Source: Eledone cirrhosa
Taxonomy: Eukaryota
Direction: 5' to 3'
Length of the DNA: 64,000 nt
NCBI GenBank assembly: GCA_964016885.1
Contig: OZ024752.1
Location: forward strand, 39,556,001-39,620,000
Shown: piece after piece, positions 1 through 54,200 of the stretch
Position numbering within the stretch: position 1 is the first letter of the stretch
Layout of the letters: each line of letters opens with the position of its first letter
Position numbers and translations under genes: made by a program
The notes under the pieces: generated by a model
The model's input: only the letters and a program-made list of their open reading frames with translations
Database searches by the model: none
Told to the model about the DNA's origin: nothing

Positions 1-378
1 AAATGGAAATTATATTTATAAAACCATATTTATTTCATTATACATATTTCAAGGACACCAAGTCATATTATGGTGCGCTTTCATCAGATAAAATATAATA
101 TAGATCAGTTTTATAAATAAATATTGACATACCCTTAAAGAATGCGACCATTTCTGTTGATTTATAAAACTGATCTATATTATATTTTATCTGATGAAAG
201 CGCACCATAATTTGACTTGGTGTCCTTGAAATATGTATATTGAAATAAATATGGTTTTATAAATATAGTTTCCATTTGTTAATATATCGTATTTTTACTC
301 CAATAATTTGTTGAGTGGTTTATATCAGTTATAAAAATATTTGCTTGTTGTATCCCAACAAATTAAATATAACTTCTA
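1..378 (+). mobile_element. Family A hammerhead-bearing PLE-like pLTR element with inverted duplication (arms 1-118/160-277, tail to 378)
   Basis: Near-perfect palindrome; ends in (CA)(TA)n; homologous to 15019-15437, 17493-17972, 29825-30172. Confidence 0.75.
183..247 (+). ncRNA. Minimal type I hammerhead ribozyme, family A (antisense twin at 31-95)
   Basis: UAUUUUAU-CUGAUGA-stem II (AAG..GCACCA/UGGUGU..CUU)-GAAA-UAUGUA-UA-(A/U)UGAAAUA. Confidence 0.75.
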
Positions 379-1351
379 CACACACACATATATATATATA
401 TATATATATATATATATATATATATATATATATATATATATATAATTGTATTTTACCTTAATTCTTGCGTTCTAGTCTAAGGTATAAGTTGAATATGTCC
501 TTGAGCAAGACACTTTATTTCATATATATATATATATATATGACGGCGAATTAGCAAACTCGTCAGGACTGTTTCATTCAAAAGAAATCCTCTGATGAAT
601 TCTTTTGAATGAATCAGTTCTAGTCCCGTAGAAGCCATTTCTATATTAAACTTCATTTTTAGCACTCTAGAAATATATTGAGTACCTTACTAACTGTGGT
701 TACCCCCCATTGAGCCCGGGACTCATATATATATATATATATATATAAAACGAAGGAAGTGTGGTAAGGAACCAGGTGGACCATAACGCACCAGAGTACC
801 CGATACTATGGGTAGTAGAGTGGGTAATAGGAAAAGAGTCAGGATCCGAAGGCCGGAGCTCAGCCGTCGGGGTCCTGACGATCAAATTGGAGTTCTAGGA
901 AGTATCGATTTCTTTGAACTCGCTTTCCAACATTGTGCTGCTAGCAATAACAGCTGGGTCATTTTCGTGAAAGAGGCTCTCTCCAAATGTAATTTTCCAG
1001 TTTCTCATTTCTATTTGCTATGATGAAATTTCCTATTTCATGCATCAAAGAAGCATAGTAGCGTTACCAACAGTGTTTCTTTCCTTAATATCAATCGGGA
1101 ATATACTCCTATAAGTCCTTGCCGTCTCCTATAGTAGCCATCCCTTTTTTTAATCAGGGCGAGAGCCTGGACTTTTTATGGAGGGGTTCACCTCGATGAT
1201 ACCGTTGAGTGGATTGTCTTTTGGACAGAGGATTACAATGCAAGACCTTAGATCTGAAATCAAATCCTCACAGGGTCTATTTTGCTTGCTTTTCAAGCTA
1301 GAAAACTATCGTTTCTGTCGTTCAGTCACATACAGCAAACTTAATATTTAA

Positions 1352-51200: not shown

Positions 51201-54200
51201 GCCATGCTTTCCAGCATAGTTACATCCCTTTACGATCTGAGTTCAAATCCCGCCGAGGCGAGGTTGACTTTGCCTTTCATCCTTACGGGGTCGATAAAAT
51301 AAAGTACCAGTAATTAACTGGATAATTGCTGGCCTTGTGCCTAAAGTAGAAACAATTATTTAACATCACTAGCATCACTCCTTCATAGTCCTCCTATGAA
51401 CACTCCAGCCAACTCTTGTATTTTTAATAGCTATAACTGTGAAAGAACTCTTATTATTTAACTAAATGTTTACTGTTTCTTGCCTGTAATAATCTATATT
51501 AAGAACAATTCACTGTTTCCATTCTTGCAGATCAATGGAAATGATGCTTTCATTATCAATCAACCATTCTATGGTTACATCTTACTTAATGCTGAACTTG
51601 ATTTTGAAACTCTTCAGAAAGCTGGTAACACTCAATACACATTAAACATATCAGCAACTGTAAGTGTTTTCTATATGTATATATATATATATATATGTGT
51701 ATATATATATATGTGTGTGTATATATGTGTGTGTGTGTATGTATATATGTGTGTGTATATATGTGTGTGTGTGTATATGTGTATGTGTGTATATATATAT
51801 GTGTGTGTGTATATATATATGTGTGTGTATATATATATGTGTGTGTGTATATATATATATATATGTGTGTATATATGTGTGTGTGTGTGTATGTATATAT
51901 GTGTGTGTGTATATATGTGTGTGTGTGTATATATATATATAGTAATAATAATAAATGCGAACACTAAAATCTAAAGAGGGCTTTCAGAAGATCCCGTTAA
52001 GGGTGAAAGCAGCAATTGTTTGCTTAAACTTTACTCTGTTATTTTTTATATATATATATATATATATATATATATATATATATATGTATGTATGTATGTA
52101 TGTATGTATGTATGTATGTATGTATGTATGTATATGTATGTATGTATATGTATCTATGTATATGTATGTATATATATGTATGTATATGTATGTATGTATG
52201 TATATGTATGTATATGTATGTATATGTATGTATGTATATGTATGTATATATATGTATATGTATGTATATATGTATATATATGTATGTATATATATATATG
52301 TATGTATATATATATATGTATGTATATATATATGTATGTATATATGTATATGTATGTATATATATATATGTATGTATATATATATATATGTATATATATA
52401 TGTATATATATGTATGTATATATATATATATGTATATATATATGTATATATATGTATGTATATATGTATATATATATATATATATATATAATCTTGTATG
52501 CATATATATATATGTATATATGTATGTATATGTATGTATGTAAATATAAATGTATGTATGTATATATATGTATATATATATGTATGTGTAAATATATATA
52601 TATATATATATATATATATATATATGTATTATTATTACTATATATATATATGTATATATATATATATATATATATATATATATATATATATATGTATATG
52701 GGGAGGGTCATATTTGTGTAATAATATTGCCAGAATTAATAACAGAACACATTCACTGTTTGGTTGGTTTCACTTCTGTGTCTTTTATATCGGTTAATTT
52801 AATTTATTCGTTCCTCAATGTTACCATTGACTGACCAGCGGTCAAAAATACAGATACAATATATATATGTATGTATGTTTTAGTTGCCGACTCTGTGCAA
52901 GACATTTTAGATCATTGGCTGGGCTAAAGAGCCACATTCGATCGCAGCGCTGTTAGTTGCTATCGTGTGTGTGTGTGTAGATATGCTTATGTGTGTGTGT
53001 GTGTGTGTATATATATATGTATATGTATATTATTATTGTTGTTGTTGTTATTATTATTATTGTTATGATTATTATTATTATTATTGTTATTAATGTATGT
53101 GTGTGTGTGTATATGTGTGTGTGAGTGTGTGTGTGTGTATGTATATATATATATATATATATATATATATATATATATATATATATATATATATATATAT
53201 ATATATATATATTAGGTATAGGATTATCCAAGATGTAGTGATGGTTAATTACTACACTGGATATGGTTGACGTACGGTAAGAGGTTACTCTACGAGTTAT
53301 GGAAGAATTGTTCAAGAAACTTAGTTCCTGATCCTTCAGTATTCCGGAGTGTATATAAAGAATGAATAATAACAGGTAGACATCATAAAAAGGTAGTTTA
53401 TTCCGTGTGCTTACAAGTGTTTCCACGGTGGTGCTGCAGCCTAGTTCCGCTACGTGCAAATTCCCAAGTATTTGCAGAACTCGAATATCCAATGCTGTGA
53501 CCACTGTTTCCTCAGAGCAGATTCTGCTCTGAGGAAACAGTGGTCACAGCATTGGATATTCGAGTTCTGCAAATACTTGGGAATTTGCACGTAGCGGAAC
53601 TAGGCTGCAGCACCACCGTGGAAACACTTGTAAGCACACGGAATAAACTACCTTTTTATGATGTCTACCTGTTATTATTCATTCTTTATATATATATATA
53701 TATATATTTTTATTTTTTTTATTTTTATTTTATTTTTATTTATTTATTATTATTATTTTTTTCTTTTTTCTTTCTCCTCGTGCAATGGCCATACTCGATA
53801 ACGAGGGGGCAGCCATCATGTATGTATGTATGTATGTATGTATGTATGTATGTATGTTTGTGTGTGTGTGCCTTTGTATGAGTATATTTGTATATGCATT
53901 TTAAAAAATTGAGATTTTTTTTAACTAAGCCTTCATGATATTTATTCAGCATTAAGTTACAGATATCTTTCTCTGGAAGAAATCTGCCGTATTCAGACCT
54001 GGAGAGGAGTTAGGCTATGCCAGGCTTAAGAAATTTGTTCTAGAAAAAATGCTGTATGGGAATACAGTATTCCACACCTCCCTCTGGAGTTATGGGACCA
54101 TATATACATACATGCATACATTCTTCTTTGTATGTGCTAAACTATAGAGTATAAGACATCAGAGTTTACAGACATTCATTGCCTTTTTCAATTTCATGAA

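Follow-up and report, generated by a model that had tools for sequence, protein, structure and literature searches.

Hammerhead-bearing palindromes in the TA microsatellites of Eledone cirrhosa: probable 5'-truncated insertions of Penelope-like retrotransposons

A stretch of 64,000 nucleotides from Eledone cirrhosa (assembly GCA_964016885.1, contig OZ024752.1, positions 39,556,001 to 39,620,000 of the forward strand; hereafter the window) contains a number of short elements that lie in or beside (TA)n microsatellites and carry the core of a hammerhead ribozyme, often once on each strand. What are these elements, and how could they have come to lie there? The reading we favour, to which we give a probability of about 90%, is that they are insertions of Penelope-like elements (PLEs) into TA microsatellites, truncated from the 5' side and retaining the 3' end with its hammerhead motif, and that the inverted arm of each palindrome likely stems from reverse transcription that started twice. 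An earlier annotation, made from the letters of the window (hereafter the first-pass annotation), had described at least six mutually dissimilar families of such elements with about 15 cores, antisense twins included, and had read them as a community of PLEs or retrozymes. With a descriptor of the type I hammerhead (stem I of at least 3 bp, CUGANGA, stem II, GAAA, stem III, UH and stem I'), we found 15 cores in the window, compared with a mean of 0.055 and a maximum of 2 in 200 dinucleotide shuffles made in blocks of 500 nt. All 15 could be assigned to six families, A to F, which gave zero cross-family matches in a masked self-BLAST (E<1e-6) and which all adjoin (TA)n at the places named, so that the number, dissimilarity and position of the families were confirmed. 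The cores, given by the position of C3, are the following.

Family A: 87(-), 15118(-), 15242(+), 17590(-), 30072(+)
Family B: 17168(-), 17270(+)
Family C: 18252(-), 18401(+)
Family D: 19739(+), 53515(-), 53529(+)
Family E: 26063(-), 26094(+)
Family F: 15860(-)

The structure of the motifs is less uniform than had been described. A short palindromic stem III had been attributed to every family; it is truly palindromic in A, B and C but not in D, E and F. Stem II is not minimal in four families, measuring 30–31 nt in A and C, 26 nt in E and 85 nt in D, and a descriptor limiting stem II to 60 nt misses family D. Three further arms are damaged: the family A arm at 191(+) has a U-U mismatch at the first pair of stem I, in element B2 the arm (29592+) lacks a part of stem II/GAAA, and C3 is missing from the D1 arm that bears the tail. 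In Rfam, F is the only family matching Hammerhead_1, with 27.3 bits against a gathering score of 34 (among the matches listed, 150 of 164). The Rfam matches at E<=1 were mostly microRNA models on simple repeats, and a general repeat search returned mostly microsatellites.

Seven of the 11 named elements (A1, A2, B1, C, D1, D2 and E) share one layout, namely (TA)n, a tail-less inverted arm, a sense arm, a tail and (TA)n again. A3 and A4 consist of a long inverted arm and the tail only, F of one arm with no tail, and B2 of one arm with a tail. Variable 5' truncation, an inverted 5' copy and a tail at one end only are all present, and the antisense twins of the first-pass annotation correspond to the inverted 5' copy that PLE insertions usually have. 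The features of the window are listed below, where L numbers denote other loci fetched from the assembly.

1..377 (+): A1, stump of a Hydra-clade PLE of family A by its motifs; inverted arm with core 87(-), sense arm with damaged core 191(+), tail to ~377; the left end falls beyond the window
545..724 (+): a seventh family, G, here in degenerate form and absent from the first-pass list; intact copies elsewhere have a 14-nt stem III
10386..10502 (-): fragment from the C-terminal end of a GIY-YIG endonuclease of Hydra type, matching the family D reading frame at 56% across 39 aa
15020..15436 (+): A2; between two (TA)n tracts, an inverted arm (core 15118-), then a sense arm (core 15242+) whose predicted cut falls after 15291, then a tail of 95 nt
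15778..16086 (-): F, tail-less 3' arm of a 4.9-kb PLE with Hydra-clade motifs; core 15860(-), predicted cut 15829; 98–99% identical to full-length L195/L196
16732..16808 (+): short family A fragment with no core, stopping at the near end point
17019..17492 (+): B1, stump of a PLE of Neptune type by its motifs; cores 17168(-) in the inverted arm and 17270(+) in the sense arm, followed by a tail
17494..17971 (+): A3; tail attached straight to a long inverted arm (core 17590-), sense core absent
18143..18655 (+): C, stump of a 2.8–2.9-kb non-coding element; cores 18252(-) and 18401(+), 145-nt tail
19398..19896 (-): D1, stump of a PLE with Hydra-clade motifs; the tailed arm (-) ends inside its core, the inverted arm has an intact core 19739(+) with an 85-nt stem II
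25982..26240 (+): E, stump of a PLE with Hydra-clade motifs; cores 26063(-) and 26094(+), tail ~62 nt
29555..29770 (+): B2, tailed sense arm of family B in which part of the core region is deleted
29827..30171 (-): A4; tail (29911-29827) joined to a long inverted arm, core 30072(+)
53213..53686 (-): D2, near-perfect palindrome (cores 53515(-) and 53529(+)) with a tail of 142 nt; 99% identity to the full-length copy L192

We then compared copies across the genome. A search with the 3' ends gave, as lower bounds, 418 candidates for A, 43 for B, 1,748 for C, 1,984 for D, 980 for E and 1,735 for F; per family the best 40 were scored and 30 cut out, making 180 loci. The inner ends of the arms are variable in these loci, whereas the outer ends fall at two fixed sites per family, both downstream of the predicted cut. 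The near site is used by tail-less, mostly inverted arms and the far site by the tailed arm, at 51 and 146 nt after the cut in A, 125 and 166–190 in B, 60 and 205 in C, 60 and 202 in D, 39 and ~101 in E, and 53 and 154 in F (the far values for A and E being the ends of the window copy that served as template). Where B, C, D and F occur as tandem copies, the tail passes into the 5' untranslated region (UTR) of the following unit. Tabulating the flanks, a check that the first-pass annotation had proposed, gave (TA)4+ within 15 nt of the end in the majority of arms of every family (A 55/58, B 32/46, C 37/41, D 35/38, E 50/55, F 28/31). Around 92 two-ended insertions the flanking (TA)n tracts have medians of 31 and 26 nt on the two sides. 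Look-alikes of an empty site were seen for five of these insertions, all of them C's own tandem junction, and a usable empty allele was not found in three DNA contig sets of one sample.

The association with (TA)n holds outside these selected loci as well. On a fixed grid of 59 stretches of 10 kb from the 3.0-Gb assembly we counted 35 cores in 11 clusters, compared with 0–3 in 15 shuffles, and (TA)4+ lay within 300 nt downstream of all 35 cores as against 31% of random points. Families D and F had no arm in this sample, and the window is about four times denser in cores than the genome average. Extrapolation gives a total of ~178,000 cores (bootstrap 102,000–264,000), and a ribozyme load of ~100,000–260,000 cores is far above the 4,000–9,000 minimal motifs that were counted in coelacanth and Xenopus by means of another descriptor (PMC4209133).

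Extending the ends in the 5' direction, the other check that had been proposed, led to open reading frames (ORFs) for reverse transcriptase (RT) and GIY-YIG endonuclease in A, B, D, E and F, and not in C. The PLE/retrozyme reading was thereby upheld for five families, which are contiguous with PLE ORFs, and a linkage to the terminal inverted repeats (TIRs) of DNA transposons, which would have spoken for another origin, did not appear. Family F has two full copies (L195 and L196, 97.7% identical) with direct repeats 4,925 and 4,862 nt apart and open frames of 915 and 916 codons. For family D, L192 has a 784-codon open frame flanked by a partial pseudo-long terminal repeat (pLTR) and a full 3' end; an inverted copy lies ahead of them, and the D protein is 46% identical to that of F across the RT region. 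An AlphaFold model of D, built from a 91-sequence alignment (predicted local distance difference test score 89.6), has telomerase RTs as its best structural matches (the top 4 of 500 PDB matches, E 2e-9 to 4e-8), which points to a telomerase-like fold for the predicted protein. The 3' parts of the A ORF are contiguous with the A end in all three long copies fetched. A broken ORF with 92–96% identity is common to three of the 20 E loci fetched (L346, L359 and L340), where a simple-repeat UTR of 2.3–2.6 kb joins it to the E end. The B ORF matches Pfam RVT_1 (E 5e-6) and GIY-YIG (E 2e-5), and its three fetched copies are all broken or truncated. Partial tandem copies form a pLTR in F (L195, L196), D (L192), B (L185) and C (12 of 20 loci), and the type I hammerhead is located in the pLTR, in the sense of the ORF. 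Thus the elements, first described as short and non-coding, are mostly stumps of coding retrotransposons of 3–5 kb, and that description holds as regards coding for C alone. The window itself, as had been noted, has no visible autonomous RT/GIY-YIG copy, just the endonuclease fragment of 39–46 aa at 10386-10502(-). The 3' UTR of E in the three loci above is rich in (TG)n/(TA)n and other elements appear to be inserted in it, so family E may spread target sites for its relatives. A further abundant RT and GIY-YIG family, 22–27% similar to B, was seen at L198:4586-7570 (an intact 995-codon frame), L187:6251-8646, L342 and L344.

To which PLEs do these proteins belong? As described by Craig et al. 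2021 (PMC8557442), the Hydra clade is defined by RW[KR], DKT, CxCX5C, CxxC, CxH and the lack of CCHH. The GIY..YIG pattern lies close to the C-terminus in the A, B, D and F proteins. D has RVRWKA and ADKT, F has RIRWRA (R for K) and ADKT, and the CxCX5C linker, CxxC-E and CxH are present in A, D, E and F; these Hydra-type families lack CCHH, and A, D and F have a single Cys between GIY and YIG. Because this set matches section 11 of Craig et al., we assign A, D, E and F by their motifs to the Hydra clade, an assignment that replaced our initial view of D, F and A as Nematis-like. The Neptune clade is marked by DKG, GxKF/Y, a CX2-5CxxC linker and a CCHH endonuclease. In B we see DKG and GxKF, a linker of the form CX4CxxC, and a CxxC within GIY-YIG, the two His of CCHH being read by eye, and B is by the same kind of evidence of Neptune type.

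The ribozyme itself seems to have been maintained, at least in family A, in which alone covariation was assessed, the other families being too uniform. Using the non-ribozyme 3' flank we collected 113 arms and kept 106 at >=62% identity, the arms not being independent events. Conservation is 0.98 in the core columns, 0.62 at N7, 0.86 in stem II and 0.77 in loop II. Three pairs of stem II swap G-C for A-T or T-A for C-G in 18–33 arms each, and stem I is still paired in 101–105 of the 106. This is the pattern of a maintained fold, and the conservation of the core across genomic copies, on which the first-pass reading depended, is borne out in this family. A transcript across the whole palindrome is predicted to fold back on itself with 79–89% of its bases paired, which makes it likely that the twin cores are by-products without activity; the ribozyme of short palindromic stumps is probably trapped in this fold-back hairpin.

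These observations fit the following course of events. A tandem copy would be transcribed through ORF, 3' UTR, ribozyme and tail, and the RT-endonuclease would nick the (TA)n. Reverse transcription would begin at two fixed internal sites of the RNA, one from each nicked DNA strand, the far site giving the tailed arm and the near site the inverted arm; both cDNAs would extend toward the 5' end of the RNA, usually stop early, and join head to head into a palindrome. In vitro work on an Anolis PLE, as reported by Frangieh et al. 2024 (PMC11167929), describes both strands being nicked and extended and RT starting at two internal sites bounding the tail, and the two fixed ends per family here match such sites. 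Since the copies span the scissile bond, the template is likely uncut or re-ligated (circular) RNA and not the cleaved 5' product, while the ribozyme, as a dimer in A, B and C, likely cuts unit-length RNA out of tandem or read-through transcripts. Priming would likely be aided by 1–6 nt of UA pairing. At the nine sites where the continuation of the template is known, template and flank share 2, 5, 4, 3, 6, 3, 3, 2 and 1 nt of alternating T/A, in total 29 nt against a null mean of 9.4 (P 5e-5), or 16.6 under a best-phase null (P 0.0065), and this excess suggests pairing-aided priming.

Several points weigh against parts of this account. The nine sites are few, related and not fully independent, and the Anolis PLE is reported to begin reverse transcription without target homology in vitro (PMC11167929). 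The minimum-free-energy folds of single strands do not give the hammerhead fold, and forcing it costs 0.5–10 kcal/mol; an unfavoured active fold in the single strand is usual for dimer-type motifs (PMC4209133). Pfam detects no RT or GIY-YIG family in the D, F and A proteins, and a PDB sequence search with the D protein gave zero matches. The RWK/DKT motifs were not seen in the copies of A and E, which are truncated or broken, and no tandem (pLTR) copy of A or E was present among the loci fetched. The clade calls are based on motifs and not on a tree of labelled references (the 104 homologues of D are without clade labels), and this applies also to Neptune versus Nematis for B. Finally, the samples favour young copies because only the best 40 candidates per family were scored.

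Could the short palindromes instead be elements in their own right? They might be self-propagating non-coding mini-elements of the retrozyme kind with a working ribozyme on each strand, as most copies are indeed short and palindromic, family C is non-coding, and the fetched loci include hammerhead units repeated in tandem, 310, 466 and 555 nt long. However, palindrome centres and arm lengths vary from copy to copy around fixed outer ends, five families run into ORFs of their own, and a transcript across both arms is predicted to fold back as described above, which makes this explanation very improbable. Long inverted repeats flanked by TA also resemble the TIRs of fold-back transposons or miniature inverted-repeat transposable elements with a TA target, in which the hammerheads would be passengers or accidents. 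This we find scarcely credible, since the tail lies outside one arm, arm lengths vary where fixed TIRs would be expected, long copies bear RT and GIY-YIG ORFs, the core is conserved and the stems covary in family A, and shuffled sequence yields almost no cores.

Two other alternatives keep the elements and change the cycle. Cleavage and re-ligation might produce a circular RNA as the obligatory template, with partial tandems arising from more than one round on the circle. Copies do cross the cut site without loss, and tandem copies of four families (B, C, D, F) have a tail that runs on into the 5' UTR; such a cycle has been proposed (PMC4209133), and circles are reported for short animal retrozymes (Cervera & de la Pena 2020, PMC7229834). 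On the other hand, this anatomy is equally accounted for by read-through transcription of a tandem copy, and ribozyme-dead mutants of the Anolis PLE are reported to insert normally in vitro, with uncut RNA as the main substrate (PMC11167929), so we hold an obligatory circle to be a serious but minority possibility. It is also conceivable that the flanking (TA)n was partly written by slippage of a telomerase-like RT at UA-rich start sites rather than being present beforehand, as all nine mapped start sites end in 1–6 nt of alternating T/A and the tracts on both sides of the insertions are long. But (TA)6+ is abundant anyway (1,076 tracts, 4.3% of the 590 kb of the grid sample, against 35 cores), tracts of at least 8 nt on both sides are found in just 55 of the 92 insertions, and the literature treats (TA)n as the target in the families described (PMC8557442); slippage therefore seems unlikely to us. 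We thus retain the reading of truncated PLE insertions into TA microsatellites.

Family C requires separate treatment. L187 has two C ribozymes 2,893 nt apart with no ORF between them. We fetched 20 C loci using the sequence downstream of the tail, i.e. the non-coding body; 12 of them have two exact cores, 11 at 2.80–2.93 kb and one at 2.23 kb, and the other eight can be aligned over much of the unit and contain the exact core string once or not at all. The GC content of the L187 unit is 39.7%. The 12 units are 94–99% identical to one another, their longest stop-free stretches span 90–196 codons, and none was matched by any of 10 PLE proteins. For the L187 unit, tblastn with 114 PLE proteins gave no match and the Hydra profile reached E 3 at best. 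An older C-like subfamily is ~86% identical, and the sole tandem among its 10 loci (L365) is a non-coding unit of 2.02 kb; at another, L363, two weak protein matches lie 1.5–3.3 kb upstream, outside any shared sequence. With the 114 PLE proteins, the Hydra profile and the 10 older-subfamily loci, we found no autonomous partner of C; as the loci were picked via the non-coding body, an ORF-bearing element with a C-type 3' end may exist. From its sequence, C is likely a non-autonomous PLE, about three times longer than the listed animal retrozymes, and would likely borrow a PLE enzyme in trans. A more far-reaching view would make C a retrozyme of giant size that lives as a parasite on PLE enzymes, with a non-coding RNA of 2.9 kb that its hammerhead would trim to unit length and that would be copied from a circle. 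It would have persisted through at least two bursts (the older relative having a non-coding 2.0-kb unit), and the genome around it would hold ~180,000 cores and TA-targeting PLEs that, in contrast to the single PLE examined in vitro, use short UA pairing at two fixed sites of the RNA for priming; taken as a whole, this is speculative and we would lean against it. A motif like GTTGAGT(G/A)CT is common to the otherwise unrelated tails of A (window ~15370), C (window ~18570) and family G, and the tail of E has its reverse complement. This motif is possibly an enzyme-binding signal and a lead to C's partner.

Further hammerhead elements were seen in the fetched loci. Family G has intact relatives in L283 and ~20 other places; stem II measures 12 nt and stem III is long, at 14 nt, and the motif is expected to fold as a monomer. 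Short head-to-tail hammerhead repeats like classic non-LTR retrozymes are present in L053 (310 nt), L022 (466 nt) and L183:4200-6700 (555 nt), those of L183 and L022 also with a PLE-style inverted 5' copy. Additional families have a stem II of 60–108 nt and would be missed by standard descriptors (L186:8013(-), L276:4462, L262:2928, L271, L298, L308). Unrelated to the ribozyme families, the window has many near-perfect local tandem duplications with periods of 26–240 nt (14498-15019, 21369-22182, 24815-25550, 50016-51165 and others). The open frames 51462-51974(+) and 54681-55184(+) have cadherin-like motifs by eye (LDFE, DGDDLDP) that did not reach significance in Pfam; the motifs suggest that D2 lies within an intron of a cadherin-type gene.

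How do these elements compare with known ones? Cervera & de la Pena 2014 (PMC4209133) regarded dispersed minimal hammerheads as truncated PLEs and described opposite-strand pairs 100–700 bp apart. Hydra-clade PLEs with inverted 5' copies, tails, canonical hammerheads and (TA)n targets are described by Craig et al., whose list includes an octopus family, Hydra-1_Obim, and the first-pass view of the niche as unannotated was therefore overstated. A literature search, with Repbase/Dfam and most subscription papers outside its range, turned up no paper that describes the present families, non-coding hammerhead PLEs of several kb, or TA microhomology. An octopus repeat annotation from 2026 (PMC13282606) gives 31 recently active PLE families; the words hammerhead and ribozyme are absent from its main text, and its supplements may hold these families.

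Families A, D, E and F resemble the Hydra clade as described (PMC8557442) in the C-terminal GIY-YIG, the motif set, the lack of CCHH, the canonical 3' hammerhead, the (TA)n targets and the inverted 5' copy. The Hydra families listed there are mostly below 3 kb, a descriptive and not a diagnostic trait, whereas D measures 3.2 kb and F, whose 3' UTR takes up 2 kb, measures 4.9 kb, and the simple-repeat UTR of E spans 2.3–2.6 kb; a stem II reaching 26–85 nt also differs from the listed families. No pLTR is reported for Hydra-1_Obim in that list, in contrast to F and D, and its listed ribozyme differs by eye from those of all six families. B is like the Neptune clade as described in the same paper in its GxKF, DKG, CX4CxxC linker, CxxC inside GIY-YIG, 3' hammerhead and (TA)n flanks, although it is known from broken or truncated ORFs and is not separated from Nematis by a tree. 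As in the Anolis Poseidon element PAc (PMC11167929), two internal RT starts downstream of the ribozyme would define the tail, both strands would be extended, and insertions span the uncut ribozyme. Unlike what is reported for PAc, the tails are 41–145 nt rather than the published 30–40 nt, the start sites of D and F lie in the 5' UTR instead of inside the ORF, and the start sites share short TA homology with the flank, of which PAc needs none in vitro.

C is like the animal non-LTR retrozymes and the non-autonomous Chlamys/MRC1, as these are described (PMC7229834, 10.64898/2026.07.22.740005, PMC8557442), in being non-coding, with one type I hammerhead per unit, a GC content below 45%, head-to-tail copies and a likely dependence on PLEs; non-autonomous PLEs are reported from Chlamydomonas (PMC8557442). 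Its unit of 2.8–2.9 kb differs from the ~300 bp given as typical (PMC7229834) and the 51–972 bp listed by Li et al. 2026 (10.64898/2026.07.22.740005), and its copies are dispersed partial tandems and not arrays. C thus behaves like an animal non-LTR retrozyme and is not classed as one, because its copies are not short tandem-array monomers. The survey of Li et al. limits the repeat period to 1,000 bp, and C, as a long non-coding element that likely hitch-hikes on PLEs, would be missed by searches with such a limit. The system as a whole is of a known kind, comprising new Hydra-clade and Neptune-type PLE families together with a long non-coding dependant, and the result is for this reason mainly one of annotation. 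At the same time, D and F are young intact elements of a clade described from sequence alone in PMC8557442, with both RT start sites mapped in vivo from insertions, and they may serve as substrates for asking whether microsatellite-targeting PLEs prime by base pairing and what role the hammerhead plays, two questions left open in the prior papers as far as they describe these elements.

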